From: Acidobacteriota bacterium
GTDB taxonomy: Bacteria; Acidobacteriota; UBA890; WLXD01
Direction of reading: 5' to 3'
DNA length: 64,000 bases
Assembly: GCA_965248695.1 (NCBI GenBank)
Contig: CBDFKD010000002.1
Location: 4,832,001-4,896,000 of the forward strand
Shown: one piece after another, positions 14,402 to 63,894 of the stretch
Layout: every line of letters begins with the position of its first letter
Position numbering within the stretch: the stretch's first letter is position 1
Notes under the pieces: model-generated
Databases searched by the model: none
The model's input: only the letters and a program-made list of their open reading frames with translations
Told to the model about the DNA's origin: nothing
Made by a program: the position numbers and the translations under genes

Positions 14402-14418
14402 CTGCTACAGGCCACTAG
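14402..14418 (+). repeat. CTAG-ended repeat copy
   Basis: CTGCTACAGGCCACTAG is the exact reverse complement of the first 17 bp of the 51272 element; its CTA is the stop of the 14415-15152 gene. Confidence 0.85.
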
Positions 14419-15152
14419 AGTCCGGGGAGTTGTAGCAGCGCGGCGATGATGGCGGCGCAGACCAGGTCGTATTGCCACGATCCACGCGGCCAATTCAGGA
14501 AGATCCAGCGACCCAGAGAGCCCCAGACCTCGAGGCCTTGCGGAGCTTGTTCGTCTCCGGCGGTGCCTTGGTGTCGCTGGCGCAGAACCCGGTAGGCGTG
14601 CAGCAGACGTTGGACGGTGGTCAACCACGTCAGGAAGGCGAGCAGCGTCACCGCCTGCGCCAGTCGTCCGATGAACAGCCCGAGCATCAGCAGCACCAGG
14701 CGCTCGCCGCGCTCGGTGAACCCGACGCGACACTCGGGGATTACGTTCTCGGCGCGCGCGCGCGTATAGGAAACGCCCAACGAACCGCCCAGCGACACGG
14801 CGCTGAGCACCACGTAGAGGGGCTCGCCGAGCATATGAAAGTGGTAGACGACGCCGATGTGAACGAGCGTGTCGGAGGCTCGATCGACAACCGAGTCGAG
14901 CACGCCACCGAATTCGGAGGTGGTGCCATAGGCGCGCGCCACGGCTCCGTCGATGAGGTCGAGTGTGCCGCCGACCACGATCCATCCGGCAGCCGCGAAG
15001 GGTCGACCCTGGGCCAGGTTCCAGGCGGCGATCGTCATCGGAATCAGCGACGAGAGCGTCAGGACGTTCGGTGGTATCCCGACGCCTCCGATCACCGACG
15101 CGAGGGCGCCCTTGACCACCGTCCCGCCGCGTCCGAGTCCCTCGCTGATCAT
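14415..15152 (-). CDS. CDP-alcohol phosphatidyltransferase (PgsA/PI-phosphate synthase family)
   Basis: PPNVLT; DLIDGAVARAYGTTSEFGGVLDSVVDR CAP motif; VSYTRARAE; GFTERGER. Confidence 0.9.
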   Translation of the reverse strand: MISEGLGRGGTVVKGALASVIGGVGIPPNVLTLSSLIPMTIAAWNLAQGRPFAAAGWIVVGGTLDLIDGAVARAYGTTSEFGGVLDSVVDRASDTLVHIGVVYHFHMLGEPLYVVLSAVSLGGSLGVSYTRARAENVIPECRVGFTERGERLVLLMLGLFIGRLAQAVTLLAFLTWLTTVQRLLHAYRVLRQRHQGTAGDEQAPQGLEVWGSLGRWIFLNWPRGSWQYDLVCAAIIAALLQLPGL

Positions 15153-15322
15153 GTCATCCTAGTGCGCCGCGCGGATTGTCAGGCGGGCGGTTTCTCCGGA
15201 CCGACGCGGTGGTGGCGTCATCGTCGATCGTCCGTCGTCGGCGCTGCGAAGCGCGGCTACGATAGGCCGGTGCCCTGAAAGCTGTCAAGAACGGCCAGCT
15301 GGCCACGACGAGCAACGCTGAC

Positions 15323-16255
15323 ATGTCATCGGTAGTGATCATCGCCAACCCGACCGCAGGTGGTGGCCGAGCGGGCCGCGCCGTTGAGCGGCTACGCCCG
15401 CGCCTGAGCGAGTGGGCTCCCGGGTGTCAGCTGATCCTCACAACGGGCCGGGGGCACGCTGCGACGCTGGCCGAGCAGGCGCAACGCGAGGGGGCGGCAG
15501 TCGTGGTTGTTGCCGGCGGCGACGGCACGTTTCATGAAGCGGTCAACGGTTTGCTTGCCGTCGATGCCGGTCCGACGCCTGATCTTGCATGCTTGCCGTT
15601 GGGCACGGGCCGCGATCTGGCCAGGTCCTTCGACATCGCGGATCCGCTCGCTGTGCTCGACGTGCCCTTGGCGCGCCTCGAGCGCCGGCTGCTGGACGTC
15701 GGTGTCGCGCAGCTCATGGGCGGTCCCGAGGGTGGCGGCGAGCGCCCCGTAAAGGTCTATTTCGTCAACCATGTCAACGCTGGGCTGGGCGCGTGGACGG
15801 CGGCGCGCGTCAGCGGCTCGGCGGGGTTGCGCCGAGTGGGCAAGGCAGCGTACGTGCTGGCCGCCGCCCCCCGAGTCGTTGGCGGCGCGCGTACCGATTT
15901 CGCATGGGTCAGTGAATCGGGCCGCGGCCGTGGCCCGCTGCTCAACGTCTCGATCTGCAACGGGCCATCGTTCGGCGGCGGCATGCGCCCGTGTCCGAAC
16001 GCTCGGCATGACGACGGCTGGCTTCACATGGCGCTGATCGATGCCATCCCGGTTTCCAGGATCCCGCGCCTGATGTACAGGGCGGCGCGCGGCGTCGACC
16101 TCGTTGATCCCGCCATCTGCGTCGTTCGCGGGCGGTCCTTCAGGCTCGAGGGCAAAGCGCTCGTGGAGACTGACGGCGAAGTGTCGGGGCGACTACCTGG
16201 ACGCTTCTCGGTGTTGCCCGGAGCGTTGACGCTGCGAGTTCCACCGCCGGATTGA
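15323..16255 (+). CDS. Diacylglycerol/lipid kinase (YegS/DgkB family)
   Basis: IANPTAGGG, AGGDGTFHEAVNG, LPLGTGRD, NGPSFGGG, ETDGE. Confidence 0.88.
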   Translation: MSSVVIIANPTAGGGRAGRAVERLRPRLSEWAPGCQLILTTGRGHAATLAEQAQREGAAVVVVAGGDGTFHEAVNGLLAVDAGPTPDLACLPLGTGRDLARSFDIADPLAVLDVPLARLERRLLDVGVAQLMGGPEGGGERPVKVYFVNHVNAGLGAWTAARVSGSAGLRRVGKAAYVLAAAPRVVGGARTDFAWVSESGRGRGPLLNVSICNGPSFGGGMRPCPNARHDDGWLHMALIDAIPVSRIPRLMYRAARGVDLVDPAICVVRGRSFRLEGKALVETDGEVSGRLPGRFSVLPGALTLRVPPPD

Positions 16256-16332
16256 GAGGCCTGGGGCGGCGGTGTACCGTCGTTCCGACCCTAGTACTAG
16301 CGCCGCCACGTGACCGCACACCGGGAGAGGCT

Positions 16333-18823
<2,491 letters not shown>

Positions 18824-18829
18824 GCGCGC

Positions 18830-19657
18830 ATGGGCGCGGTGACGCTCGGCGATGGCGTGGTCTTCGGCGACGGTGAGCTCGGGCTGATCGCCGGTCCCTG
18901 CGTGATCGAGAGCCGGGACCACTGCCTCCGTATGGCCGAAGCCGTTGCCGAGATTAGCCGCCGGGCGCGGTTGCCGTGCGTGTTCAAGGCCTCCTACTAC
19001 AAGGCCAATCGCACGTCGGTGTCGACTTACCGTGGCCCCGGTGCTGACGAGGGGCTGCGCATTCTCGCGGACGTTCGCGACGCTGTCGGCCTGCCGGTCC
19101 TGACGGACGTGCACGAACCGGCGCAGGCAGCTGCTGCGGCGGAGTGTGTCGACGTCTTGCAGATTCCGGCCTTCCTGTGCCGCCAGACAGACCTGATTCT
19201 GGCGGCTGCCGCAACCGGCCGGCCGGTCAACCTGAAGAAGGGACAATTTCTGGCGCCGTGGGACATGGGTCAGGTGGTCGAGAAGGCGGCCTCTACCGGC
19301 AACGAAGCGTTGCTGGTCACCGAGCGCGGCACGTCGTTCGGCTACAACAATCTCGTCGTCGACTTCAAGGGCCTGCGTTTTCTCGCCGGATTCGGCTATC
19401 CGGTCGTGCTCGACGTTACCCATAGCCTGCAGCTGCCCGCCGGCCAGGGGGAAAGCACCGGCGGACAGCCCGAGTTCGCCGAGCCGCTCGCAGCCGCAGG
19501 TGTGGCTGCTGGAGTCGATGTCCTGTTCATCGAGGTGCACGACGATCCGCCCGCGGCGCTCAGCGACGCCAGCACCCAGCTGCCGCTAGAACGCCTCGAA
19601 CCGCTGATCGAGAAGCTCATCAGGATCCGAGCCGCGACTTCCGCCACGGCCGACTAA
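18830..19657 (+). CDS. kdsA: KDO-8-phosphate synthase
   Basis: IAGPCVIES, KANRTS, LTDVHE, QIPAFLCRQTD, KKGQF, TERG, FIEVH. Confidence 0.96.
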   Translation: MGAVTLGDGVVFGDGELGLIAGPCVIESRDHCLRMAEAVAEISRRARLPCVFKASYYKANRTSVSTYRGPGADEGLRILADVRDAVGLPVLTDVHEPAQAAAAAECVDVLQIPAFLCRQTDLILAAAATGRPVNLKKGQFLAPWDMGQVVEKAASTGNEALLVTERGTSFGYNNLVVDFKGLRFLAGFGYPVVLDVTHSLQLPAGQGESTGGQPEFAEPLAAAGVAAGVDVLFIEVHDDPPAALSDASTQLPLERLEPLIEKLIRIRAATSATAD

Positions 19658-19667
19658 GGCGAGGGAA

Positions 19668-20660
19668 ATGGCCGCCGAACGAACCGATACAGCTCGCCGC
19701 CGCGCCGGGTTGGAGATGGCGCGCGAGGTCCTGCAAACCGAGGCGCAGGCACTGCAGAAGCTCGCCGAGCGCCTCGACGAGGAAGCGCTGGGGCAGGCGT
19801 TGGATCGGCTGCGTGCCTGCGACGCCCGTATCGTCTGCTCGGGGATGGGCAAGTCGGGCATTATCGCCAGGAAGCTGGCCGCGACACTTGCCTCGACCGG
19901 GAGCCCGGCGTTCTTCCTGCACCCGGCCGAGGCTGGGCACGGCGACCTGGGCATGCTGGTCGACGGCGACGTGTTCTTCGCGCTCAGTCACAGTGGCGAC
20001 ACCGGCGAGATCGTTGCGTTGTTGCCGGCGATCCGGCGCTTGAAAGTGGAATTGATCGCCATGGTCGGCGATATCGATTCGACCATCGCGCGCGAGGCGG
20101 ACGTCGTCTTACACGTCGACGTCGATGTGGAGGCATGTCCACTAGGGCTCGCCCCGACCGCGTCGACCACTGCCGCTCTAGCGCTCGGCGACGCGTTGGC
20201 GATGGCCCTCCTGAAGGAGCGCGGGTTCGGGGCCGAGGAGTTCGCCCGCTTCCACCCGAAGGGATCTCTGGGGCGTCGACTGCTACGCGTGCGCACTGTG
20301 ATGCACACCGGTGATCAGGTGCCGCGCGTTGGTGAGACCGCTTCGCTTGCGGAGGCGATCGAGCAGATGACCGCCAAGGGTCTGGGGATGACGCTGGTAG
20401 AGTCGGTCGACGGTAAGTTCGCCGGCATCATCACCGATGGAGACATTCGCCGGCTCGCCCAGAGCGGTATCGACACCGACCAGTCGGCGCGCAGCTGCAT
20501 GACGCCAGATCCGGTGTTCGTCGCCGCCGACGCGCTGGCGACGGAGGCGTTGCGGTTGCTCGAGGAGAGCCGCATCACTGTGCTGATCGTCGATGATGGC
20601 GATCGACGCGCCCTCGGCGTCGTCCATCTGCACGATCTGTGGCGAACGCAGATGGTCTAA
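19668..20660 (+). CDS. kdsD: Arabinose-5-phosphate isomerase (KpsF/GutQ; SIS + CBS domains)
   Basis: GMGKSG, STGSPAFFLHPAEAGHGDLG, EACPLGLAPTAST, FHPKGSLG, TDGDIRR. Confidence 0.95.
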   Translation: MAAERTDTARRRAGLEMAREVLQTEAQALQKLAERLDEEALGQALDRLRACDARIVCSGMGKSGIIARKLAATLASTGSPAFFLHPAEAGHGDLGMLVDGDVFFALSHSGDTGEIVALLPAIRRLKVELIAMVGDIDSTIAREADVVLHVDVDVEACPLGLAPTASTTAALALGDALAMALLKERGFGAEEFARFHPKGSLGRRLLRVRTVMHTGDQVPRVGETASLAEAIEQMTAKGLGMTLVESVDGKFAGIITDGDIRRLAQSGIDTDQSARSCMTPDPVFVAADALATEALRLLEESRITVLIVDDGDRRALGVVHLHDLWRTQMV

Positions 20661-20740
20661 TCCCCTGTTACAGGCCACTAATGATCCCGCCGCGAGTCCT
20701 ATCTGCGGCCCTATCGATTCCCCTTGTTGCAGGCCACTAG
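20657..20740 (+). repeat. Two tandem copies of the CTAG-ended repeat between kdsD and kdsC
   Basis: TCCCCTGTTACAGGCCACTAA (20661-20681) and TCCCCTTGTTGCAGGCCACTAG (20719-20740). Confidence 0.85.
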
Positions 20741-20753
20741 AAGGCTGCGAGAA

Positions 20754-21332
20754 ATGCAGCGACTCTCCAGATCGGACTACGAAGATCGTTTGCGGCGGCT
20801 GCGGCTGTTGATTACCGATGTTGACGGGGTGCTCACCGACGGATCGATCGTCTATGCGGGTGCCGACAGCGAGGCCAAAGTGTTCAACGTTCGCGACGGC
20901 AGCGCGGTGAAGATTGCCTCGGTGATCGATCTCCGGATCGCGGTGGTGACGGCGCGCGAGTCGGCCGCCGTCGGTCGGCGGTTCTCCGAGCTGCCGGTTT
21001 TCGAGCTGCGCCAGGGCGCTTTCGACAAGGTCGGCGCCTGCCTGGAGATGCAGGCGAAGCTCGGGCTGGAAGCGTCGCAGGTGGCCTTTCTGGGGGACGA
21101 CCTGGTTGACCTTGCCGTCATGCGCCACGTGGGAACAGGAATCGCGGTCGCCGACGCGCACCCGCGTATTCTCGAGGCCGCCGACCGGGTCACAGCCGCG
21201 CTCGGCGGACGGGGCGCCCTCCGCGAGGTGGTCGACGACGTGGTGGTCGCGCGAGATCTCTGGGACAGCGTCGAGAACGACTATCTGCGCCGTCAGTCGG
21301 TTGCGCCGGCAGACGAGCCGGATGCACCGTGA
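20754..21332 (+). CDS. kdsC: KDO-8-phosphate phosphatase (HAD family)
   Basis: ITDVDGVLTDG, FNVRDG, FLGDDLVD, GGRGALRE. Confidence 0.93.
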   Translation: MQRLSRSDYEDRLRRLRLLITDVDGVLTDGSIVYAGADSEAKVFNVRDGSAVKIASVIDLRIAVVTARESAAVGRRFSELPVFELRQGAFDKVGACLEMQAKLGLEASQVAFLGDDLVDLAVMRHVGTGIAVADAHPRILEAADRVTAALGGRGALREVVDDVVVARDLWDSVENDYLRRQSVAPADEPDAP

Positions 21333-21370
21333 GCCGGTGAGATCGGACCCATGTCCGGGGGCTACGACGC

Positions 21371-22543: not shown

Positions 22544-22554
22544 GCAACGCGCCA

Positions 22555-23548: not shown

Positions 23549-23553
23549 GGCCG

Positions 23554-23564
23554 GTTGCAGGCCA

Positions 23565-23568
<4 letters not shown>
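23554..23568 (+). repeat. CTAG-ended repeat copy
   Basis: GTTGCAGGCCACTAG; its CTA is the folD stop codon. Confidence 0.85.
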
Positions 23569-24485
<917 letters not shown>

Positions 24486-24530: not shown

Positions 24531-24554
24531 CTAGAGGCTGCGACAGGCCACTAG
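24531..24554 (+). repeat. CTAG-ended repeat, near-palindromic short form
   Basis: CTAGAGGCTG-CGA-CAGGCCACTAG; the final CTA is the stop of the last BMC-P gene. Confidence 0.85.
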
Positions 24555-24823
24555 GAGCCCCAGTCGATTTGATCGATGATTCCGACGATCGCGGCGTTCG
24601 CGGGCGCCAGGTCGATTCCCATCGCCTGGCTTGCGGAGCGTCCCTCGATGACCACGAGGACCGTCTCGCCGGCTCCGGCGCCGACGCTGTCGACGGCCAA
24701 GAGCTCGGCGCCCGACTCGTCTCCGCCGCGCGCCAGCGGCTGCACCAGCAGCAGCTTGCTGCCGTGGAACTTGGCGTGTTTCTGCGTCGACACGACGTTG
24801 CCGACCACCCGCGCCACGATCAT
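24551..24823 (-). CDS. Microcompartment vertex pentamer (BMC-P, EutN/CcmL family) no. 3
   Basis: MIVARVVGNVVSTQK, KLLLVQP, AVDSVGAGAGETV, AIVGIID. Confidence 0.93.
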   Translation of the reverse strand: MIVARVVGNVVSTQKHAKFHGSKLLLVQPLARGGDESGAELLAVDSVGAGAGETVLVVIEGRSASQAMGIDLAPANAAIVGIIDQIDWGS

Positions 24824-25089: not shown

Positions 25090-25120
25090 CGAGCGGCCTC
25101 GTGTCCTGTCGCGCTAGTGG

Positions 25121-25396
25121 CTAGCTGCCGTCGTCGACGTGCGCCTCGTCGACGATACCGACGATGGCAGTGTCGACCGGGCAGTTGGCGAGCCCTTCAG
25201 CCATGCGGGCGGATGACCCGCGAACGCACAGCACGGTCTCACGATACCCGGCATCGACCGTGTCCAGGGCGACGTGATAGCCGTCTTCGTCGTTACCGTC
25301 GGGGTCGACCGGGACAACGATCAGGAGTCGACTCCCCGCGAGCTTCGGGTCCTTGCAGGTCGCTACCACCGTGCCTGTCACGCGCGCAAGAAACAC
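25121..25396 (-). CDS. Microcompartment vertex pentamer (BMC-P, EutN/CcmL family) no. 1
   Basis: MFLARVTGTVVATCK, ALDTVDAG, GSSAR, PVDTAIVGIVD. Confidence 0.93.
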   Translation of the reverse strand: MFLARVTGTVVATCKDPKLAGSRLLIVVPVDPDGNDEDGYHVALDTVDAGYRETVLCVRGSSARMAEGLANCPVDTAIVGIVDEAHVDDGS

Positions 25397-31668: not shown

Positions 31669-31953
31669 ATGGCCACCGCGCCGGGTCAGAATCCGATCAC
31701 CGGCCTGATCCCCTTCGTTGCGATGGTGCTCATCTTCTACTTCCTGTTGATCGCTCCCGTGCGCAAGCGTCAGCGCCAACACGACGAGCTCCTGAGCAAC
31801 CTGAAGAACGGAGACAAGGTGGTTACCAACGGCGGCATCTACGGCACCGTGGTGGGCATCCAGGACGACCGTTTCCGGCTCAAGATCGCCGACCAGGTAA
31901 AGATCGACGTCACCAAGCAGAGCATTACGGGCCTTGCCGAGGGCTCGGACTAG
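31669..31953 (+). CDS. yajC: Preprotein translocase subunit YajC
   Basis: TM IFYFLLIAP, LKNGDKVVTNGGIYGTV; between tgt and secD. Confidence 0.93.
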   Translation: MATAPGQNPITGLIPFVAMVLIFYFLLIAPVRKRQRQHDELLSNLKNGDKVVTNGGIYGTVVGIQDDRFRLKIADQVKIDVTKQSITGLAEGSD

Positions 31954-31974
31954 TCCTCGGTTACAGGCCACTAG
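31950..31974 (+). repeat. CTAG-ended repeat, 25-bp form with decayed left arm
   Basis: CTAGTCCTCGG-TTA-CAGGCCACTAG; the first CTAG contains the yajC stop. Confidence 0.85.
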
Positions 31975-37018: not shown

Positions 37019-37042
37019 CTAGTGACCTGTCGCAGGCCACTG
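37019..37042. repeat. CTAG-ended repeat, best-preserved short palindrome
   Basis: CTAGTGACCTG-TCG-CAGGCCACTG; arms AGTG(A)CCTG and CAGG(C)CACT pair with one mismatch. Confidence 0.85.
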
Positions 37043-37083
37043 CAATACTCTCCGCTCACCATAAACCGCTTACGGAGGTCCGC

Positions 37084-48329: not shown

Positions 48330-49486
48330 CCCTCGAGCGGTCGTAGAATCGAGCGCGCGATGATGTGGCGCTGGATCTCGCTGGTGCCGTCCCAGATGCG
48401 GTCCAGGCGCGCGTCGCGCCAGAAGCGCTCGATCGGCATCTCCTTCATGACGCCCATGCCGCCGTAGATCTGCACCGCGTGGTCGGTGACCATGGCCAGC
48501 ATCTCGCTGGCGTAGAGCTTGGACATCGCTGCGTCCTGCGAGGTCATGGTGCCCTGGGTGCACTTCCAGGCCGCCTTGAGCGTCAGTAGGTCGGCGGCCT
48601 CGATCTGGGCCGCCATGTCGGCGATCTTGAAGCCCGTTCCCTGGAACTGACCGATGGGCTTGCCGAACTGCGTCCGCGTTGCAGCCCACTCGGACGCCAT
48701 CTCGAACACTCGCTTCGCTCTGCCGACGCATAGGGCGCCCATCGATAGCCGCGCCGGCTCCAGCCATACGCCCGCGAGCTTGAACCCCTCGCCGGGCGCA
48801 CCCAGCATTTGGCTTCCCGGGACCCGGCAGTCATCGAAGAACAGCTCCGCATGATCGTAGCCGCGGTGCGAGACACAACTGCCGCCATAGCCCCAGGTGA
48901 ATCCGGACGTCCCCTTGTCGACCAGAAACGTGGAGATCTCGTTGCGCGGCCCGCGGGGCGTCTCGTCTACCCCGGTAACCGCGAACAGGATCACGTAGTC
49001 AGCGCGCATCCCGAAGCTGATATAGATCTTCGAGCCATTGATGACGTAGTCGTCGCCGTCCTTGGTCGCGGTAGTCTGCATGCCGCGAAGATCCGACCCG
49101 GCGGCCGGCTCGGTCATCGCCAGGCAATCGAGACGCTCACCGCGCACGGTGGGTTTCAGGTAGGTCTCGATCTGCTCGTCGGTGCCCGCCTGCAAGATGT
49201 TGCTTGGTCGATGGACGATGTACTGCAGCGCATAGGAGGCCCACCCGAGCTCGCGCTCCAGCAGCGTAAAGGACAGTGGGTCGAGCCCGCCACCGCCGTG
49301 TTTCTCGGGAATGTCGGCGGCGTACAGCCCCTGCTCGATCGCCCGCTGCTTGATCTGGTCATACAGCTCGTCAGGTACCGCATCTTGCTCTTCGACGAGG
49401 TCCTCGTGCGGCAGCAATTCGCGCTGCACGAACTCACGTGTTGCCTCGATGATCAGCTCTTGTTCGTCAGTCAGTGTGAAGTCCAT
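48326..49486 (-). CDS. Acyl-CoA dehydrogenase
   Basis: AMTEPAAGSD, INGSKIYIS, RTQFGKPIGQFQ, AVQIYGGMG, RDARLDRIWDGTSEIQR. Confidence 0.94.
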   Translation of the reverse strand: MDFTLTDEQELIIEATREFVQRELLPHEDLVEEQDAVPDELYDQIKQRAIEQGLYAADIPEKHGGGGLDPLSFTLLERELGWASYALQYIVHRPSNILQAGTDEQIETYLKPTVRGERLDCLAMTEPAAGSDLRGMQTTATKDGDDYVINGSKIYISFGMRADYVILFAVTGVDETPRGPRNEISTFLVDKGTSGFTWGYGGSCVSHRGYDHAELFFDDCRVPGSQMLGAPGEGFKLAGVWLEPARLSMGALCVGRAKRVFEMASEWAATRTQFGKPIGQFQGTGFKIADMAAQIEAADLLTLKAAWKCTQGTMTSQDAAMSKLYASEMLAMVTDHAVQIYGGMGVMKEMPIERFWRDARLDRIWDGTSEIQRHIIARSILRPLEG

Positions 49487-51161: not shown

Positions 51162-51275
51162 ATGATGGATGCAGGCGCGATCGTCATGATGCTGTTCGTT
51201 CTGGGCTTCATCTGGGGCGGGTTCGGGCTGCTGCTGTTGCGGTCGATGCGGATCGATCGGGACCGTGGTGACTAG
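51162..51275 (+). CDS. MetS-like small subunit of an NSS transporter (37 aa, absent from the ORF track)
   Basis: MMDAGAIVMMLFVLGFIWGGFGLLLLRSMRIDRDRGD*; single TM with AIxMM...WGG pattern; GGAG upstream; directly follows the NSS gene. Confidence 0.8.
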   Translation: MMDAGAIVMMLFVLGFIWGGFGLLLLRSMRIDRDRGD

Positions 51276-51822
51276 TGGCCTGTAGCAGATGAACGTTGCC
51301 TATCGTGGTGGCGAAATGGGCTCGGATGCCAGGCGCGACGACGAGACGATGTTGGCCCATCTTCGAGGAGGAGCAACGCCGCAGACGGGCCGATTTCACC
51401 GCCATCCTACGGACAGATCGGCAGTTGCGGGCGATATCGGCGTTGCACCTCGTCGACGATGCCCAGCAGGCCGTGGTGAGAGTGTGATGGGTCTGGCAAG
51501 TGGGACTTACGGGCGAGGGCAAGGATCGACGACGAGGCGATGCTGGCGTCATCGTGCAGGAGGAGAGACGCCGTCATCGCCCGTAACTCCCACTTGCCCG
51601 AAGGGTTATGCCGCCAAGGGTGCATCTCCAGCGTTGCCGCCCCTGGATGATGCGCACAGGCATCACCAGCGGCGCGGCGCCTTGGATCTGCGCCCTTGGC
51701 GGCACAACCAGACCCATCACACTCTCACCACGGCCTGCTCACATCGCCGTCCTCGCCGCGCCTTGATCTCACCCGCAAATCCCATCTGCGATAGGCAACG
51801 TTCATCTGTTACAGGCCACTAG
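51272..51822. mobile_element. 551-bp non-autonomous MITE-like element with 34-bp TIRs and nested internal inverted repeats
   Basis: 51272-51305 CTAGTGGCCTGTAGCAGATGAACGTTGCCTATCG vs reverse complement of 51789-51822: 33/34 identical; perfect 32-bp internal IR 51465-51496/51708-51739; no transposase-like ORF. Confidence 0.85.
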
Positions 51823-51833
51823 GGGCCTGTAGC
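51819..51833 (-). repeat. Additional TIR-like arm sharing the terminal CTAG of the element
   Basis: CTAGGGGCCTGTAGC, 14/15 to the left TIR start. Confidence 0.7.
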
Positions 51834-53709: not shown

Positions 53710-53710
53710 T

Positions 53711-55168: not shown

Positions 55169-55432
55169 GCTTCGGAATGCCTGCGTGGGAGAGGGGGTCT
55201 GGGGCGGCGGAACGGCAAGCTAGCACGCACCTCCGAGGCGCGCAAACGTCGCCGAGGACGGCGAAAACGCCTGTCGTAAGGGGCTTTCACGGCCCTCGGG
55301 TGGACGGCATCGGCGCCGCCGGCGGGGGCCTGCCGCGGGGCCGGGAAATCGCCGTCCGTTGGCCGTCTCCTGGTAGCGGGCGCGGTGAGGTCACGGCGTC
55401 TGCGAAGCGAAACAGCAACTCGGGGGGAAAGC

Positions 55433-55801: not shown

Positions 55802-56394
55802 GACCGGATCGCGCTCGTCGCAATGCCGGCAGCTCGATCATCGAGGCGGTGGTCGTGTTGGCGGTGTTCGGGATCGTCGTGCAGGCGGTGGCGCCAGCGT
55901 TCGTGCGCTGGCGCCAAGCGCGTCGCCTGGAAGCCGCGGCCGAGGAGTTGGTGCTCTTCGCGGCGGGGCTGCGGACGGCCGCGGCCGCCGCAGGAGCCTC
56001 CCGTGGCTTGGCGTTCGACGCCGACGGCGGCGCGGTCGAGTGGACGCCGGTCGCCGACGGCGATGGCGACGGTCTCCGCCGCGCCGATCTGCGGGCGGGG
56101 CGCGATGTCGTCATCGGCCCGTCGCGCGACGTGACCGCCAACTATCCCGGCGTGATCGCCGGTCTACCGCCGGGTGTGCGCACACCGAGCGGTGGAACGC
56201 CGCCCGCTGATGGTGTTGCCTTCGGACGCGGCGACCTGTTGTCGCTTTCCGCCGACGGCACCGCCACGTCCGGCAGCCTCTACCTGCACAACCGGTTCGG
56301 TGACGCGGTTGCCGTTCGAGTGTACGGTGGCACGGCGCGCTTTTCGATTTGGCGCCGCCGAGCCGAAGACCGGGTCTGGCGCCGGCGCTGGTAG
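55798..56394 (+). CDS. FimT/GspH-like minor pilin
   Basis: RRNAG|SSIIEAVVVLAVFGIV prepilin-like N-terminus with E5; GTATSGSLYL; GTGA overlap with comEA. Confidence 0.7.
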   Translation: MRPDRARRNAGSSIIEAVVVLAVFGIVVQAVAPAFVRWRQARRLEAAAEELVLFAAGLRTAAAAAGASRGLAFDADGGAVEWTPVADGDGDGLRRADLRAGRDVVIGPSRDVTANYPGVIAGLPPGVRTPSGGTPPADGVAFGRGDLLSLSADGTATSGSLYLHNRFGDAVAVRVYGGTARFSIWRRRAEDRVWRRRW

Positions 56395-56543
56395 CCGTTT
56401 CGCGCCGCCGGGGGCGCCCCAGCCTGGCGTTGCCAGTCCGGTGCCCAGAGGCCGACCAGCGGCCCGCAGCTATGGTAGCGTCATTCGTTGCGTTATCGCC
56501 GGGCGCCGTAGAGACCCACTCTCCGGGTCGTAGAGGACGTGCA

Positions 56544-57638
56544 TTGTCGGAGCCGTTGAGAACACCGTTACACGCCTGGCACGTCCGGCGCGGTGGGCGA
56601 ATGGTCGACTTCGCCGGCTGGCACATGCCGGTGCAGTTCAGTGGGCTGGTGGAGGAGCATATTGCCGTCCGGGAGCGCGCCGGCCTGTTCGATGTCAGCC
56701 ACATGGGCGAGATTCGACTCCGCGGCCGCGATGCGCTCGACAACGTGCAGAGATTGACCACCAACGACGCCGCTGCACTCCAGATCGGTCAGGCGCACTA
56801 CACCGCAATGACGCGCGAATCAGGCGGCATGGTGGACGACCTGCTGGTGTACCGAATGGCCGAGGACGACTACTTCCTGGTCGTCAATGCGGGCACCAAG
56901 GACAAGGACTATGCCTGGATCGAAGGCCATCTGGAAGGCGAGGTCGAGGCGGTCGATGAAAGCTCGCAATGGGCCCAGCTGGCGCTGCAAGGGCCACGAA
57001 GCGAGGCCATATTGGCGCGAGTCGTCGACGCGGACCTCCCGTCGATTCGCTATTACCGGTTCGCGATGGCGGAGGTTGGTGGCAACGCAGCGATCGTCTC
57101 GCGCACCGGCTATACGGGAGAGGATGGATTCGAGATCTATGTCGCACCGCAGAGGGCGGAAACACTGGCCGACGACCTGATGCAGGCCGGCGCGGAGGAC
57201 GGCATCGTGCCGGTTGGGCTCGGTGCCCGCGACACGCTGCGTCTCGAGGCGGGCATGCTGCTGTACGGCAGCGATATGGACGATTCGCGGACACCGGTGG
57301 AAGCCGGTATCGGCTGGGTGGTGAAGCCGGACAAGGGTGATTTCGTCGGCCGCCGGGTGCTGGTCGAACAACTCGCTGCGGGCACCGTCGAACGCGTCGT
57401 CGGCCTGGAGATCCCTGCCCGAGGGATCCCGCGGCACGGCTACCCGGTGCTCAACGCCGCCGGCGATTCGATCGGCGTCGTGACCTCGGGCACTTTCAGC
57501 CCGACACTGCGGAAGGGGATCGGCTTCGCCAGCGTCACGTCGGAGCATGCCAGCATCGGTGCCGAGGTGGCGGTCGAGATTCGTGGTCGGGCGACCCCGG
57601 CCACCGTGGTGAAGATCCCTTTTTACCGAAGACAGTAG
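56544..57638 (+). CDS. gcvT: Glycine cleavage system aminomethyltransferase T
   Basis: LRTPLH, FAGWHMPVQF, FDVSHMGE, LQGP, RTGYTGEDGFE, GLGARDTLRLEAG; TTG 56544 with GAGGA. Confidence 0.97.
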   Translation: MSEPLRTPLHAWHVRRGGRMVDFAGWHMPVQFSGLVEEHIAVRERAGLFDVSHMGEIRLRGRDALDNVQRLTTNDAAALQIGQAHYTAMTRESGGMVDDLLVYRMAEDDYFLVVNAGTKDKDYAWIEGHLEGEVEAVDESSQWAQLALQGPRSEAILARVVDADLPSIRYYRFAMAEVGGNAAIVSRTGYTGEDGFEIYVAPQRAETLADDLMQAGAEDGIVPVGLGARDTLRLEAGMLLYGSDMDDSRTPVEAGIGWVVKPDKGDFVGRRVLVEQLAAGTVERVVGLEIPARGIPRHGYPVLNAAGDSIGVVTSGTFSPTLRKGIGFASVTSEHASIGAEVAVEIRGRATPATVVKIPFYRRQ

Positions 57639-57703
57639 ACCCGTTTCCGCCAGCGGGAAGCGAGCTCGGTCCCGCTGGCTAAACTGGCTGAAAGGATACG
57701 CCC

Positions 57704-58087
57704 ATGGCCGATTATCCGGACACGCACAGGTACAGCACGGATCACGAGTGGATCTCTATCGACGGTGATGTCGGCACCGTCGGGATTACCCACCACGCCC
57801 AGGACGAGCTTGGTGACGTTGTGTTCGTCGAGCTGCCAGAACCGGGCGCGACGTTTGCTCAGGGTGCAGTGTTCGGCATCATCGAATCGGTAAAGGCGGT
57901 ATCCGATCTGTACGCGCCGACAGCCGGTGAGGTGGTCGAGATCAACGAAGTCCTTGTCGACGCCCCCGAGGCCGTCAACGACGATCCGCACGGGGCCGGT
58001 TGGATGATACGGATCCGGCTCGACGATCCATCGTCGGTCGAGTCGCTTATGAGTAGCGCCGACTACCAGCAGCATATCGAGGCGTAG
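57704..58087 (+). CDS. gcvH: Glycine cleavage system H protein
   Basis: YSTDHEW, GITHHAQDELGDVV, IESVKAVSD lipoyl-lysine. Confidence 0.97.
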   Translation: MADYPDTHRYSTDHEWISIDGDVGTVGITHHAQDELGDVVFVELPEPGATFAQGAVFGIIESVKAVSDLYAPTAGEVVEINEVLVDAPEAVNDDPHGAGWMIRIRLDDPSSVESLMSSADYQQHIEA

Positions 58088-58088
58088 C

Positions 58089-59486
58089 GTGAGCGAGACG
58101 TCGCGGGGTGCGGGGCCTGACACTCGCAACGATGTCGGCGGCGGTGGACGCTACCTGTCACTCGGCCGATCGGATCGGGAATCGATGCTGGCGACGATCG
58201 GGATCGAGCACGTCGACGAGCTATTCGCCGATATTCCGACCAGCGTACGTTTCCAGGGAATGCTCGGTCTCGAGCCGGCGCTATCGGAGCTCGAGCTCGT
58301 CGAGCATCTCGAGGAGCTGGCGGCGGCCAACGCGCCGGATGGTCGGCTCCTGAGCTTCCTCGGCGCCGGTTGTAATCCGCACTTCGTTCCCACCCATGTC
58401 GACGCGTTGATCCAGCGCCAGGAATTCCTCACCGCCTATACGCCCTACCAGGCCGAGGTCGGGCAGGGCACCCTGCAAGCGATCTTCGAGTTCCAGAGTC
58501 TCGTCTGCCTGTTGACCGGCATGGACGTTTGCAACGCGTCGGTCTACGACGGCGCCAGCGCTGTTGCCGAGGCAGTGCTGATGGCGCGTCGACTAACGCG
58601 CCGAGGGGGCAGAGTTCTGCTGTCGGAAGGCGTACATCCGGCGTGCCGGGCGGTGGCCCGGACCTACGCCAGGTACCTTGACGACATCGAGTTCGAGGTG
58701 CTGCCGCTCGACGAGCAGGGCCGTACCGTCGTCAGCGACGTCGATGACGATGTGTTCGCCGTGGTGCTGCAGCAACCGAATTTCTTTGGCGTCGTCGAGG
58801 ACCTGCGGCGCGCTGGTGAGCGAGCTGCGGCGGGCGGCGCCAAGTTCGTCGTCAGTACCACCGAGCCGGTGGCATTTGGCTTGGCGATCCCGCCCGCACA
58901 AGCCGGGGCGGACCTTGTCGTCGGTGACCTGCAGAGCTTCGGCAACGGGATGAATTTCGGCGGACCGCTGGTGGGCTTCATGGCATGTCTCGATGCTGAC
59001 AAGCGCAATCTTCCCGGGCGGCTCGCTGGCCGTACCGTCGATGCCGATGGCAAGGAGGGGTATGTCCTCACCCTGTCGACTCGCGAACAGCACATCCGAC
59101 GTGCCCGCGCGACTTCCAACATCTGCACCAACGAGGCGCTCTGTGCGCTGGCCGCCTGCATCCACATGTGCAGCCTGGGGCGCCGCGGGATCACCGACCT
59201 GGCGCAGAACAACCTCGCCAAGGCGACATACGCGCGTGCCCAGCTGGCGGCTCGCGGTGTGCCGACGGTGTACGACGGTCCGCATTTCAACGAGATCGTC
59301 GTGCGCGTAGGCGGTGATGCGGTCGAGGTGGTCGATCGGTGCCTGGCACGCGACGTGATTCCGGGGGTGGCGCTAGGTCGCTTCGACGCCGGACGGGCGG
59401 ACCAGCTGCTCATCTGCGTGACGGAGGTGCACCGCAGGTCGGCGATCGATCGCCTGGCAGACGTCTTGGCCGAGGCGGTGGCATGA
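58089..59486 (+). CDS. gcvPA: Glycine dehydrogenase subunit 1
   Basis: FLGAG, EFLTAYTPYQAE, NASVYDG, GGP, TREQHIRRARATSNICTN. Confidence 0.96.
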   Translation: MSETSRGAGPDTRNDVGGGGRYLSLGRSDRESMLATIGIEHVDELFADIPTSVRFQGMLGLEPALSELELVEHLEELAAANAPDGRLLSFLGAGCNPHFVPTHVDALIQRQEFLTAYTPYQAEVGQGTLQAIFEFQSLVCLLTGMDVCNASVYDGASAVAEAVLMARRLTRRGGRVLLSEGVHPACRAVARTYARYLDDIEFEVLPLDEQGRTVVSDVDDDVFAVVLQQPNFFGVVEDLRRAGERAAAGGAKFVVSTTEPVAFGLAIPPAQAGADLVVGDLQSFGNGMNFGGPLVGFMACLDADKRNLPGRLAGRTVDADGKEGYVLTLSTREQHIRRARATSNICTNEALCALAACIHMCSLGRRGITDLAQNNLAKATYARAQLAARGVPTVYDGPHFNEIVVRVGGDAVEVVDRCLARDVIPGVALGRFDAGRADQLLICVTEVHRRSAIDRLADVLAEAVA

Positions 59487-61009
59487 ACGGCGACGCGACC
59501 GGTTACGACAGCCGGCAGGGGCAGCTCAAACAGGAGCCGCCGATATTCGAACGAGGTGGTGAGGGCCGGGTCGGCTATTCGCTGCCCGCGCTTGACGTAC
59601 CCCGGGTCGATGCGGCGGAAGCGTGGGGCGCGGATCTCGTGCGGGATGCGGTAGACGGGTTCCCCGAGGTTTCCGAGGTGGATGTCGTGCGACACTTCAC
59701 CCGCATCTCGCAGCACAACTACGGCATCGATCTGGGTCTGCACCCACTCGGGTCGTGCACGATGAAATACAACCCGAAGCTGCACGAGCGCGTCGCACGG
59801 CTGCGCGGCTTCGCGGCAGCGCACCCCTACATGCCAGAGGCCGCTTCGCAGGGTGCCCTGGAGCTCATGTGGCGCCTGGAGCGCATCCTTTCGGAGATTA
59901 CCGGACTGCCGCATGTCTCCATGCAGCCGGCAGCGGGCGCTCAGGGCGAGCTTACCGGGATCATGATGATCGCCGCGTACCACCAGAAGCGCGGCGAGGC
60001 GCGGCGCAAGGTACTCATTCCCGATTCGGCGCATGGCACCAACCCGGCCACGGCGAGCCTGTGCGGATTCGATCCCGTCGAGATCCCCAGCAACGAGCGC
60101 GGCACGATCGATCTGGAGGCGTTGCGAGCAGCAGTGGGCGAAGACACTGCGGCTCTGATGTTGACCAATCCGAACACCATGGGGCTGTTCGAGGATCGCA
60201 TCGACGAGATCGCCGACATCGTCCACGCCTCGGGCGGCCTGATCTACTGCGACGGGGCCAACCTGAATGCCATTCTCGGCAAGACGCGACCCGGAGACTT
60301 CGGCGCCGACGTGTTCCACATCAACATGCACAAGACGTTCACCACCCCACACGGTGGTGGCGGCCCGGGCTGTGGCCCGGTGGCGATGTCGGAGTGTCTC
60401 GAGCCCTACCGGCCGCGACCGGTGGTGGTGCGCAACGAAGACGGCAGCTATCGATTCGACGATGACCGCCCTGACAGCATGGGGAAGATCCACGGCTTCT
60501 ACGGCAACTTTGCGATGATGGTGCGCGGCTACGCCTACATCCGGGCGCACGGAGCAGCTGGCCTCCGTCAGATCGCCGAGGACGCCGTCCTCTCGGCCAA
60601 CTATCTGAAGGAGCGTCTCAAGGGGGAGTACGAGTTGCCTCAGGATCGCGCCTGCATGCACGAGGTGGTGTTCTCCGACCGGCGTCAAGAAGAGCACGGT
60701 GTGACCGCGATGGACATCTGCAAGCGGTTGATGGACTACGGCTTCCACCCGCCGACGGTCTATTTCCCGCTGGTGGTGCCCGGAGCGCTGATGATCGAGC
60801 CCACCGAGACGGTGTCCTCGCAAGAGCTCGACGGGTTCGCGGACGCCATGCTCTCGATTGCCCGAGAGGCGCGTGATGACGCGGAGCTGGTGAAGGGCGC
60901 TCCGCACACCACGTACCATCGACGGCTCGACGAAACGCGGGCCGCTCGACAACCCGTACTGCGCTGGAAGCCACAACCGGAGCCCGCGGACGAAAGCGAG
61001 TCGGCTTGA
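59483..61009 (+). CDS. gcvPB: Glycine dehydrogenase subunit 2
   Basis: PLGSCTMKYNP, SAHGTNPA, TNPNT, HKTFTTPHGGGGPG, MIEPTE; ATGA overlap. Confidence 0.96.
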   Translation: MNGDATGYDSRQGQLKQEPPIFERGGEGRVGYSLPALDVPRVDAAEAWGADLVRDAVDGFPEVSEVDVVRHFTRISQHNYGIDLGLHPLGSCTMKYNPKLHERVARLRGFAAAHPYMPEAASQGALELMWRLERILSEITGLPHVSMQPAAGAQGELTGIMMIAAYHQKRGEARRKVLIPDSAHGTNPATASLCGFDPVEIPSNERGTIDLEALRAAVGEDTAALMLTNPNTMGLFEDRIDEIADIVHASGGLIYCDGANLNAILGKTRPGDFGADVFHINMHKTFTTPHGGGGPGCGPVAMSECLEPYRPRPVVVRNEDGSYRFDDDRPDSMGKIHGFYGNFAMMVRGYAYIRAHGAAGLRQIAEDAVLSANYLKERLKGEYELPQDRACMHEVVFSDRRQEEHGVTAMDICKRLMDYGFHPPTVYFPLVVPGALMIEPTETVSSQELDGFADAMLSIAREARDDAELVKGAPHTTYHRRLDETRAARQPVLRWKPQPEPADESESA

Positions 61010-61013
61010 GCCG

Positions 61014-61715
61014 GTGAGCGGCCTGCGCACGATCGGCGTGCTGGGCGGTATGGGGCCTGCCGCCACAGCGTACTTCTTCCAACAGCTTGTTGACCGGGTC
61101 GGTGCCGGGTGCGATCAGGAGCATCCCCCATGTATGGTCTACAACGCAACGCAGGTGCCCGACCGCACCGCGCACCTAACGGGTAGCGGGGAAGATCCGA
61201 CCGCAGCACTACGGCAGGCGACCCAGACCCTCGAGCGCGCCGGCGCCGCCTTCATTGCGGTTCCGTGCAACTCGGCGCACGCTTATCTTCCCGCGATCCA
61301 GGATGCTGTCGACATCGAGGTGTTGGACATGATCGGGCTGACCGCTTCTCGTGCCGCGGCGACGCTACCGTCCGGCGGCTCTGTCGGTGTGCTGGCGGCC
61401 ACCGGGACAATCGAGTTGGGCTTGTACGATCGCGCCCTGCAAGCGCACGGTGTGAGCGCTGTGCGACCGCAGCCGCATACTCAGGTCGGTGTCATGGCAG
61501 CGATCCGCGCCGTCAAGAGCGGTGGGTCCGAGGCGCGGCAAAAGCTCGATCCGGCGATCGATGAGCTCGTCGGCAGCGGCGCCGAGCTCCTGGTTCTCGG
61601 GTGTACCGAACTACCCCTGGTGGATCTCGGGCAGCTGCAAGTGTCGGTGCTCGACGCCACCGAGGTTCTCCTGCTGGAGTCGCTGCGGCGTGCCGGCGTG
61701 ACGCTGCGAAGCTGA
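61014..61715 (+). CDS. PLP-independent amino-acid racemase (Asp/Glu racemase, RacX/YgeA-like)
   Basis: IGVLGGMGPAAT, PDRT, PCNSAH and LGCTELP catalytic cysteines. Confidence 0.92.
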   Translation: MSGLRTIGVLGGMGPAATAYFFQQLVDRVGAGCDQEHPPCMVYNATQVPDRTAHLTGSGEDPTAALRQATQTLERAGAAFIAVPCNSAHAYLPAIQDAVDIEVLDMIGLTASRAAATLPSGGSVGVLAATGTIELGLYDRALQAHGVSAVRPQPHTQVGVMAAIRAVKSGGSEARQKLDPAIDELVGSGAELLVLGCTELPLVDLGQLQVSVLDATEVLLLESLRRAGVTLRS

Positions 61716-61719
61716 GCCG

Positions 61720-62829
61720 ATGAGCGAGGCCCGCCGCGTCAGCGTTGAGCTCGATGGCGATCGTGCCTACGAAGTTGCCGTGGGCAGCGGATTGACCTCC
61801 ACTGCCGGCCAGCTTCTGCAAGCGACGGTCGAGCCTGGCGCCCTCGCGGTGGTGGTTGTCGACCAGGCGGTCGCAACCCTTCACGGCGATCGAATGCGGG
61901 CGGCGCTGACGGCAGCGCAGGTGCACTTCGTCGAGCTAGCGGTGCCGAGCGGTGAGAGCTCGAAGACACGTGAGGTAGCAGCGGCGTTGCAAGACGACGC
62001 CATCGACGCGGGCGCCGACCGGCGATCTGCAGTCCTGGCGTTCGGCGGCGGTGTCGTCGGTGATCTCGCCGGCTACGTTGCCGCGACGCTGTATCGGGGC
62101 ATCGCCTACGTTCAGGTGCCGACCACGCTCTTGGCCATGGTGGACAGCTCCGTCGGCGGTAAGACCGGCGTCGATACGGCGGCGGGCAAGAACCTGATCG
62201 GAGCATTCTGGCAGCCGCGCGCGGTGCTCGCCGACATCGACTTGTTACAGACTTTGCCGGACGTCGAGGTGCAAGCTGGTCTTGCCGAGGTGATCAAGTA
62301 CGGCGTGATCCTGGATGAACAGTTGTTCGTGGATCTCGAGGACGGGCTGTTGGAATCCTGCCTCGCGAAGGTTCCGGAAGCGCTGACGCTGGTTGTCGAG
62401 CGCTGTGTGCGCCTCAAGGCTGAGGTCGTAGTTGCAGATGAGAGGGAGGGCAACCGTCGTCAGATCCTGAACTTCGGTCACACCGTGGCGCACGGCGTGG
62501 AGTCGTCGCTGGATTACTCGCTGCGGCACGGTGAGGCCGTGGCCATCGGCATGGTGGCGGAAGCGAGGCTGGCAGAGAAGTTGCTCGGAGCCGCGGCCGG
62601 TCTTTCGGAGCGCATCGCTTCGCTGTGCGCGCGCACCCGGTTGCCCGTCGCGCTGCCGGCGGGGTGCTCGCCGGCAGATGTGCTCGCCGGGGCTCGCCAC
62701 GACAAGAAGTCCAGGGACGGCGTGCTCTACTGTGCGCTTGCCGAGGACATCGGGCGCATGGCTGAGCGCGATGGGCTCTGGGCCGTCGAGGTCAGCGATC
62801 GCGCCCTGCTCGACGCGCTGATTGGCTAG
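61720..62829 (+). CDS. aroB: 3-dehydroquinate synthase
   Basis: GESSK, GGGVVGDLAGY, PTTLLAMVDSSVGGKTG, KNLIGAF, LNFGHT, HGEAV. Confidence 0.96.
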   Translation: MSEARRVSVELDGDRAYEVAVGSGLTSTAGQLLQATVEPGALAVVVVDQAVATLHGDRMRAALTAAQVHFVELAVPSGESSKTREVAAALQDDAIDAGADRRSAVLAFGGGVVGDLAGYVAATLYRGIAYVQVPTTLLAMVDSSVGGKTGVDTAAGKNLIGAFWQPRAVLADIDLLQTLPDVEVQAGLAEVIKYGVILDEQLFVDLEDGLLESCLAKVPEALTLVVERCVRLKAEVVVADEREGNRRQILNFGHTVAHGVESSLDYSLRHGEAVAIGMVAEARLAEKLLGAAAGLSERIASLCARTRLPVALPAGCSPADVLAGARHDKKSRDGVLYCALAEDIGRMAERDGLWAVEVSDRALLDALIG

Positions 62830-62842
62830 AGCTATGTAGTAG

Positions 62843-63841
62843 CTACGGCTCTGTGGCCGAGGCGCGCGGCGGTCCGCCGGTCGGCAGCGCGCTGGCGTTG
62901 CGTAGTTGCTCGCGGAACCAGGGCAGAGTCAACTCGAGCCCGGCCTGTAGGTCTATCTCGGGCTCCCACCGGAGCTCACTGGTGGCGCGCGTGACGTCCG
63001 GTCGGCGCACCTTGGGATCGTCGATCGGCAGCTCGTCGAAGATGATGCGGCTGTCGGTGCCGCTCATCGCGATCACCAGCTCGGCGATCTCCAGAATCGT
63101 CACCTCGTTTGGGTTGCCGATATTCACTGGCGTGCTGATGTCGGAGCGCAGCAAGGTCAGCAAGCCGCGAACGGTGTCGTCGACGAAGCAGAAGGATCGC
63201 GTCTGCGCCCCGTCGCCGTACACGGTGAGGTCCTCCCCGGTAAGGGCCTGCATGATGAAGTTGGGCACGGCGCGACCATCGTCGACCCGCATCCTCGGGC
63301 CGTAAGTGTTGAAGATACGGGCGATGCGGGTATCGACTCCGTGGCTACGGTGGTAGGCCATCGTCATGGCCTCGGCGAATCGTTTGGCCTCGTCGTAGAC
63401 ACCCCGTGGCCCGATGGGATTTACATGTCCCCAGTAGGTTTCCGGCTGCGGGTTCACCTGCGGATCGCCGTAAACCTCAGACGTGGAGGCCAGCATGAAG
63501 CGAGCGCCTTTGTTGCGTGCCACGCCGAGGGCCTTGTGAGTTCCCAGCGCTCCGACCTTGAGGGTGTGGATCGGGTACTTGAGGTAGTCGGCCGGCGAGG
63601 CTGGCGAGGCGAAGTGCAGTACGTAGTCGAGCGGCTCATCGACGAAGACGTAGTTGGTGACGTCGTGCTCGATGAACAGGAAGTCGCGATTCGCGAAACG
63701 TGCCACGTTCGACGCCGAGCCGGTCAGCAGATTGTCCATGACGATCACACGGCAGCCTTCGTCCAGGAGGCTGGAGGCAAGGTGTGAGCCGATGAAACCG
63801 GCGCCGCCGGTAATCAATACGCTCTTCGCGCGATCAGTCAT
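62843..63841 (-). CDS. UDP-glucuronate decarboxylase (UXS)-family NAD-dependent SDR
   Basis: [54 protein letters not shown]. Confidence 0.93.
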
Positions 63842-63894
63842 CTAGTGTCCGGTAGGAGAGGTTCGTCGCACGTCGCCGGGTTGCAGGCCACTAG
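63842..63894. repeat. 53-bp internally deleted remnant of the CTAG-ended element
   Basis: Left 28 bp match the left TIR at 21/28; right end GTTGCAGGCCACTAG, whose CTA is the stop of the sugar-transferase gene. Confidence 0.8.

Follow-up and report, generated by a model that had tools for sequence, protein, structure and literature searches.

Why should what looks like the end of a transposon point the same way at almost every place where it occurs? The question is raised by a 64,000-nucleotide stretch of an Acidobacteriota chromosome (hereafter the window, positions 4832001-4896000 of contig C2 in genome G000, which has 5.89 Mb, 65% G+C, and two contigs), along which the motif GYBRCAGGCCACTAG is dispersed in a strand ratio of 9:1. 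The original prediction was that a transposon end had been domesticated as a polar chromosomal signal, akin to KOPS, Chi, or Ter, or else that one arm of the element was being homogenised by biased conversion. We show that the motif forms the outermost part of the terminal inverted repeats in a non-autonomous miniature inverted-repeat transposable element (MITE) of the IS630/Tc1-mariner type, and that most copies in the window are not whole elements but remnants of deletions, 18-57 bp long, with one tip left. One-ended remnants keep the tip reading 5'-...CAGGCCACTAG-3' on the G-rich strand in around 70% of the cases, a correlation with GC skew. The bias of the window probably reflects a real, moderate, replication-linked polarity of these remnants, which would arise by deletion across a hairpin during lagging-strand synthesis. 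The view that the motif is a domesticated KOPS- or Chi-like signal is not supported.

The motif is the tip of a MITE

The 9-mer CAGGCCACT has 10 matches in the window (plus strand at 14408, 20671, 20730, 23558, 24544, 31964, 37033, 51812, and 63884, minus strand at 51274), where 0.46 are expected and none of 100 shuffles reaches 10. The copies, their coordinates, and the 9:1 bias are thus as first described. When up to two mismatches are allowed, the 15-mer has 14 matches against 1.13 expected, the extra variants being at 37019, 51819, and 25098 on the minus strand and at 48678 on the plus strand. The latter sits inside a coding sequence conserved in three relatives and looks like a chance match. 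The placement of the copies in intergenic regions or at gene ends also holds under our gene calls, which come from a crude filter of our own making based on the G+C content at third codon positions (GC3), and not from a gene finder.

Across the genome, the 9-mer is found 175 times (89 on the plus and 86 on the minus strand). Once these copies are aligned on the motif, conservation is seen to reach inward by 58 nt or more in about 60% of them, and to stop abruptly after CACTAG. Minus/plus pairs within 100-3000 bp number 28, most of them 264-278 bp apart; other spacings are around 175, 197, and 550 bp, and two wider pairs look coincidental. This delimits a MITE of about 278 bp, with terminal inverted repeats of around 33 nt, no coding frame, and variants of about 190, 290, and 551 bp. 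It is represented by 24 full-length and many partial copies, as identified with nhmmer using a model built from 19 copies. The motif had been taken for a transposon end, and rightly so. A single strand of the element (copy from G002, see below) has a folding energy of -95.7 kcal/mol, compared with -51.4 +/- 4.4 in shuffled sequences (z = -10.1). The element has been mobile, since its presence at sites 14408, 51272, and 63884 differs among G000 and its congeners G003, G002, and G004.

The flanks of the MITE are CTAG, TTAG, GTAG, or CTAA, with TA as the constant part (NTA...TAN in the 28 pairs). That the TA target is duplicated on insertion is seen when the filled sites at 31950 and 24531 are compared with their empty orthologs, and the TA of CTAG is strongly preferred. 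The element has G as its first base and C as its last, so that a CTAG is restored on either side and a TAG stop codon can receive an insertion without harm; this accounts for the placement in intergenic regions and at gene ends. In 27 of the 84 solo arms the terminal CTAG carries the TAG stop of the neighbouring gene. Harmless landing sites are many, given how common CTAG stops are: TAG ends 1343 of the 3478 crudely called genes of G000, and in 602 of these it is part of CTAG.

The assignment to the IS630/Tc1-mariner type is based on two resemblances. ISY100, a studied element of the IS630 family, inserts into TA and duplicates it (PMC2170065), and the MITE does the same. In a related genus (g4), a 1205-bp insertion sequence (IS), two copies of which are 99.4% identical over exactly that span, has a 370-aa frame with a match to PF13358 (DDE_3). 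It ends in TA followed by GTCTCCTGTAACAG, which is alike in 12 of 14 bases to the MITE end, TA followed by GTGGCCTGTAACAG, and has the same CTAG flank. PF13358 has matches in 7 of 30 relatives and none in G000, and no element with ends identical to those of the MITE was found. Scanning G000 for pairs of ends 0.7-3.5 kb apart gave nothing convincing. The abundant IS of this genome, identified by self-comparison, were rejected as autonomous partners since all have unrelated ends.

Eight of the copies in the window are deletion leftovers of 18-57 bp (Table 1). G003 has a full or partial MITE at the sites of 14408 and 63884 and a remnant at that of 51272; the remnants therefore derive from MITEs. 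It had been argued that their one-sidedness is not what neutral decay would produce, and we concur: where a relative of 83-87% identity has an empty site, 12 of 12 bases of the kept arm match, and nothing recognisable is left on the other side. The one-sidedness is thus real, but the earlier description of a decayed left arm is only partly accurate, since several of these arms are not mutated: the sequence at 20657 is an inner part of the repeat, and those at 24531 and 31950 are inserts of 18-19 nt. In the genome, the sizes of the remnants form a series of 6, 8, 17-23, 40-60, and 100-200 nt, and the spacing from one CTAG to the next has maxima at 8 and 21 (with 17 cases for each, where around 3.3 are expected). 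The 19-nt mini form GTGGCCTGT(A/T)ACAGGCCAC and the 8-nt form GTGGCCAC are those expected of slippage between the palindromic CTGT.ACAG and GGCC of both arms.

Orientation of the one-ended remnants

We compared G000 with four congeners (G001 to G004), in all of which the region of the window is syntenic. An arm was called two-ended when it had an inverted partner within 700 nt and one-ended when it had none, a threshold of our own. Polarity was measured as the strand of the kept tip relative to the sign of GC skew, and by leading strand we mean the G-rich strand, which also bears the excess of genes. Arms less than 705 nt from the end of a locus and duplicate contexts of overlapping loci were dropped before counting. 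G002 was sampled in 58 stretches of 20 kb, with local skew, and in G003 20 of the 120 11-mer matches were covered only through matches to the 16-mer. Two genomes were left out of the statistics: G004, which is apparently very near G002 (the compared intervals are letter-identical at two orthologous sites), and G001, which is too fragmented.

The kept tip is on the G-rich strand in 51 of the 76 one-ended arms of G000 (p = 0.004). The figure is 46/70 (p = 0.012) when the window is excluded, 32/44 (p = 0.004) when only the exact 11-mer is counted, and 48/69 (p = 0.002) outside called genes; just 7 of the 76 arms are inside called genes, split 3:4. Two-ended arms of the same genome show no significant bias (49/94), and the 24 full MITEs are oriented independently of skew (4:5 and 6:9). 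The bias of one-ended arms was also found in G002 (35/47, p = 0.001) and, with the rule unchanged, in G003 (32/45, p = 0.007). The remnants of these genomes are largely not those of G000, with which G002 shares 1 of 47 and G003 8 of 45. Removing the 8 shared sites from G003 leaves 27/37 (p = 0.008), and mapping its arms onto the skew of G000 gives 31/44 (p = 0.01); its two-ended arms are again balanced (24/50, not significant). Pooling the one-ended arms of G000, G002, and G003 gives 118/168, or 70% (p = 1.6e-7).

The original prediction had proposed counting the motif per strand genome-wide against skew. Taken together, the 9-mers give no signal (89:86), but the one-ended copies do switch with skew: in the segment of rising cumulative skew (3.58-5.35 Mb) they number 19 on the plus and 10 on the minus strand, and elsewhere 14 and 33 (Fisher p = 0.004). 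Two-ended arms are split 22:19 and 26:27 in the same segments. The window is located in that part of the chromosome where positive GC skew and the preference of genes for the plus strand are both strongest, which is why nearly all of its remnants are co-oriented. It also has more one-ended arms than expected (6 for 0.84, Poisson p = 2.5e-4), and the orthologous regions of the relatives are likewise rich in these elements. The density of CTAG was discarded as the source of this excess, since the window has 46 CTAGs and ranks 55 of 91 bins. A second run of plus-strand 9-mers (11:0) lies at C2:250000-500000, at negative skew; around six of these lack TAG and look like chance coding matches.

We also classified the one-ended arms of G000 and G002 by gene context. 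The kept tip is on the G-rich strand in 21 of 31 arms between convergent genes and 10 of 15 between divergent genes. In these symmetric contexts 31 of 46 arms are thus on the leading strand, so the effect of skew is not explained by transcription. In tandem contexts, the figures are 20/35 next to leading-strand genes and 28/31 next to lagging-strand genes. A second effect appears to add to the first, in that the arm adjoining the stop codon of the upstream gene tends to be kept.

A second MITE family, with a different end sequence, was counted as well. It is around 270 bp long, occurs genome-wide (e.g., C2:410704-410913), has ends of TA followed by GCAGGCCGTGGTGGAAGTGTGG... and of TA followed by GCAGGCCGTGGTGGAAGTGTGGCGGGCCTGG..., and comprises about 90 two-ended arms in G000, as well as 33-bp mini forms (CTAGCAGGCC...GGCCTGCTAG). 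Its kept tip is on the G-rich strand in 43 of 65 cases in G000 if the rule is loose and in 30 of 44 if it is strict, and in 9 of 13 in G003. The pooled count under the strict rule (56/88, p = 0.014) indicates the same direction and a weaker bias.

Several observations weigh against a replication-linked polarity of deletion remnants, or against the mechanism that we propose for it. Some concern the counts. The two-ended control of G002 is itself biased (24/35, p = 0.04), the bias of the second family is not reproduced in the sample of G002 (17/31 strict, 23/44 loose), and where one arm is exact and its partner inexact, the counts are 10/26 in G000 and 16/23 in G002. The bin of 0-0.5 Mb is reversed, with 6 plus and 3 minus one-ended arms at negative skew, and next to leading-strand genes the bias is just 20/35. 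The local excess of remnants in the window is not accounted for. Other points concern the frame of reference, since the direction of replication is deduced solely from GC skew and gene-strand bias, genes were called crudely, and we set the thresholds of the classification ourselves. Moreover, dnaA is at 2.24 Mb (C2:2242231), around 1.3 Mb off the minimum of cumulative skew at 3.58 Mb, and the arms defined by skew are very unequal (about 1.8 Mb rising and 4.0 Mb falling). The mismatch between dnaA and skew could result from a recent rearrangement, an origin located away from dnaA, or an assembly problem. Finally, G000 lacks a transposase of the IS630 family (PF13358), and it does have a Ku gene (C2:374041), which makes end joining after excision possible.

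Proposed lagging-strand deletion and its alternatives

These points notwithstanding, we consider a replication-linked origin of the polarity probable, and propose the following course of events. Positive skew on the plus strand would mean that the fork moves rightward and that the plus strand is the lagging-strand template, on which the MITE strand could fold into a very stable hairpin. The polymerase extending an Okazaki fragment would enter from the side far from the origin, here the right, copy the right arm, and stall. Slippage to a microhomology at or beyond the left boundary would then delete the interior and the origin-side arm, and because slippage would follow the copying of the right arm, the right tip would be kept, which is the orientation seen. 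Two-armed mini forms would result if the slip occurred between palindromic sub-motifs common to both arms (CTGT.ACAG and GGCC). A weaker second constraint may add to this, as deletions must spare the stop codon of a gene that ends in the terminal CTAG.

Nearly precise excision is known from Tn10, where the deletion runs from one short repeat to another within the inverted ends and a small palindrome stays behind. The 19-nt and 8-nt mini forms are similar, as two tips joined at sequences common to both arms, whereas most remnants described here are one-armed and occupy natural chromosomal sites instead of being laboratory revertants. A lagging-strand preference of hairpin-mediated deletion is said to have been reported by Trinh and Sinden (in Nature, in 1991) for engineered plasmid inserts in E. 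coli. The direction of our bias fits deletion on the lagging-strand template and the MITE folds at z = -10, but ours is a correlation with GC skew in three wild genomes, and the mechanism is a putative one.

The main alternative, unlikely but worth bearing in mind, is that the remnants were made by a transposase: aberrant or one-ended excision, with a normal cut at one end and a cut within the repeat at the other, followed by joining through Ku and LigD, would leave 0-2 nt of one end and 17-23 nt of the other. Many remnants are indeed bounded exactly by the duplicated TA and retain only G or GT of the lost end, and the Ku gene mentioned above would be available. Yet this model predicts no link with GC skew, the common mini forms join at palindromic microhomologies, and G000 has no PF13358 transposase. 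Classical short excision footprints were set aside, as they are not enriched in the genome (CTAGTACTAG occurs once).

It is improbable that there is no real polarity, and that the 9:1 ratio and the genome-wide trend arise from chance and choices of analysis. In its favour, the overall strand ratio of the 9-mer is even, the signal of G000 is modest without the window (p = 0.012 to 0.04), and one control and one replicate misbehaved (the two-ended arms and the second family of G002). Random 12-mers also show coding-driven strand bias of either sign (42:17 for the reversed motif, 177:225 for 12 shuffles pooled). Such an account has difficulty with the result of the unchanged rule on G003 and with the pooled count, and a coding-driven bias with the scarcity of one-ended arms inside called genes. 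Besides, the motif is rich in A and C, so that base composition would predict the opposite direction.

Selection at gene ends alone, by which the arm next to a stop codon is kept since a deletion there harms the gene, is still less credible as the source of the polarity. The 27 of 84 solo arms that hold the TAG stop of a neighbour speak for it, as do the tandem contexts of G000, in 24 of 37 of which motif and genes are on opposite strands. But genes are mostly on the leading strand, and such selection on its own predicts a motif on the lagging strand; it also leaves the leading-strand preference in symmetric contexts unexplained. We give a similarly small chance to the possibility that a single tip is a directional binding site, for a protein derived from a transposase or of the host, that is tolerated or useful only on the leading strand, the other orientation being purged. 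Polar retention would then be more than a scar, a view not far from the original prediction.

The domesticated polar signal of the original prediction fares worse and seems very unlikely. KOPS, Chi, and Ter have very strong polarity and a high density along the arms. The one-ended remnants resemble them in switching orientation with the sign of skew, hence with the replication arm, and the window has a local excess of copies. They differ in their much lower polarity (67-74%) and density (76 one-ended arms in 5.76 Mb), in having no known binding protein, and in that the bias is limited to remnants: in G000, two-ended copies bearing the motif show no bias, while the second family, with another end sequence, is biased similarly if more weakly. 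The comparison of orthologous sites, proposed along with that prediction, showed that the sites are lineage-specific, being empty or differently filled in relatives, which argues against a signal, and that the other arm is missing. Biased gene conversion, in which one arm is homogenised and the other decays, has next to nothing to recommend it: the kept arm is often perfect and the other side seems degenerate, but empty orthologous sites show recent inserts of 18-21 nt whose other arm was deleted and not mutated, and in several remnants the supposedly decayed arm is an inner part of the same repeat, so that conversion is unneeded.

Three further classes of elements were rejected. REP and BIME elements, which are associated with RAYT transposases, are likewise short palindromes located between genes, at gene ends, and somewhat strand-biased with respect to replication. 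The units described here instead form the ends of an element of 278 bp that has 33-nt repeats and TA duplication, and the Y1 transposase (PF01797) has no match in G000, which is 96% complete. Integron attC sites, imperfect palindromes found in a single orientation at gene ends, were dropped since the spacing here is several kb and the motif ends a 278-bp repeat. Structured RNA was set aside for lack of any match to Rfam models at gathering score in the window.

As the tip of an IS630-type MITE from a member of the Acidobacteriota, the motif itself is thus ordinary, and the same tip recurs in several phyla. The lagging-strand bias of hairpin deletion is known to us only from engineered constructs. 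If general, the polarity described here would be a natural, genome-wide trace of it, and the remnants could serve as markers of past fork direction where the origin is uncertain, as in G000. In a milder version of the binding-site hypothesis, one-ended MITE remnants may be a general fossil record of the direction of bacterial forks. A literature search at the level of titles found no report of replication-polar MITE remnants. For annotation, the results are a warning that short palindromes at gene ends can be transposon scars and not regulatory or chromosomal signals.

Individual sites, distribution of the tip, and minor observations

The window is part of the core genome and contains no island. 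Its genes include those for a CDP-alcohol phosphatidyltransferase, a SIS/CBS isomerase, a HAD hydrolase, FolD, EutN, YajC, SecD, RelA/SpoT, PilM, and an epimerase. The copies of the MITE in the window are detailed in Table 1.

Table 1. Copies of the MITE and their remnants in the window. Terminal CTA stops are reverse-strand TAG codons of minus-strand genes; a dot marks features to which no single strand is assigned.
Position	Strand	Feature	Gene context	Orthologous site in relatives
14393..14418	+	One-ended remnant; 21 nt between TA and terminal TA; only right end ...CTACAGGCCAC left	Terminal CTA is the stop of a CDP-alcohol phosphatidyltransferase gene (14415-15152, minus strand)	Site 14408 in G003: full MITE, ~300 bp
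20657..20681	+	One-ended remnant, 19 nt, CTA...TAA flanks; ATCCCCTGTTACAGGCCAC matches last ~19 nt of repeat variant ...GATTCCCCTGTTACAGGCCAC; no palindrome	Intergenic	Different in every relative examined
20682..20740	+	One-ended remnant, ~57 nt; right end of second MITE subfamily (...CCCATCTGCGGCGCTATCGATTCCCCTGTTACAGGCCACTAG); in tandem with remnant 20657..20681		
23549..23568	+	Short one-ended remnant	Terminal CTA is the stop of a folD-like gene (23565-24485, minus strand)	Insert at 23558 absent from G003, G002, G004, G001
24531..24554	+	18-nt insert plus duplicated TA in ancestral GGGGCTA.G..CCCC site; right arm perfect	Terminal CTA is the stop of an EutN-like gene (24551-24823, minus strand)	Undisrupted in four relatives
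31950..31974	+	19-nt insert plus duplicated TA	Between yajC and secD; TAG stop of yajC in left CTAG	Plain CTAG in G003 and G001; CTAAG in G004; different 20-nt insert, same orientation, in G002
37019..37043	.	Two-armed 19-nt mini-palindrome (GTGACCTGT-C-GCAGGCCAC)	After relA/spoT-like gene	
51272..51822	.	Complete composite MITE, 551 bp, both ends there; second-family MITE (GCAGGCCGTGG...CCACGGCCTGC) nested at ~51464-51739		19-nt mini only in G003; empty TAG site in G002 and G004
51819..51833	-	Older one-armed remnant, 1 mismatch; abuts the 551-bp MITE; sole oppositely oriented remnant of the window		
63842..63894	.	Internally deleted remnant, both tips kept; 47 nt between flanking TAs	Terminal CTA is the stop of a minus-strand gene (at 63891) leaving the window	Site 63884: MITE of ~190 bp in G003; empty in G002 and G004

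Some of the orthologous sites are occupied by other elements. At the one corresponding to 37019-37043, G002 has a 33-bp mini form of the second MITE family, and G004 (locus L101) has three different palindromes of 16-17 bp in a row, all of them enclosed by CTAG or TTAG. The CTAG sites of this genus apparently accumulate scars of several TA-inserting elements. The composite at 51272-51822, in which a second-family MITE is nested in one of the first family, is also found at C2:733546, 4669338, and 5094743. At 25098-25125, a minus-strand arm with two mismatches is followed by CTAGTGGCTAG, which could be a very short remnant (TA + GTGGC + TA), and near the ortholog of this site G002 has a full MITE (G002:C8:232631-232908).

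The MITE resembles others of the IS630/Tc1-mariner type, of which RUP in Streptococcus pneumoniae and Nezha in cyanobacteria are examples, in being small, non-coding, and multi-copy, in its repeats of around 33 nt and its TA duplication, and in a tip like that of an IS630-family element of a related genus. It differs in the lack of a matching autonomous element in G000, in the strong preference for CTAG, and in the occurrence of the tip in several phyla; a literature search at title level found no published description of the family. All 4 genomes of the genus carry a 16-mer of the tip, whose occurrence elsewhere in the order is sporadic (9 of 31 genomes). A 20-mer was found in records titled Acidobacteriota, Terriglobia, Longimicrobiales, Gemmatimonadales, Candidatus Binatus, Tahibacter soli, Acidimicrobiia, and a betaproteobacterial metagenome-assembled genome. 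As judged from these sequence matches, the distribution suggests that one transposase lineage may have spread across phyla. Elements of around 100-155 bp bounded by the 20-nt tip, with both ends in the stretch, occur in Longimicrobiales, Tahibacter soli, Acidimicrobiia, and Gemmatimonadales (loci L014, L024, L026, L063, and L076).

G000 is rich in other IS. An IS3-like element of 1260 bp is present in more than 40 copies, nearly all 100% identical (e.g., C2:55544-56803), an IS256-like element of 1404 bp in about 18 (e.g., C2:105817-107220), and another IS3-like element, of 1367 bp, in about 6 (e.g., 103715-105081). Several kb-scale segments of the smaller contig, C1 (127 kb), recur at C2:5.21-5.24 Mb and 2.776-2.784 Mb with 95-99.96% identity. 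They may correspond to an integrated or duplicated mobile element, and include weak matches to Bac_DnaA-type ATPases (C1:21895, C2:5236567, and C2:2777217).

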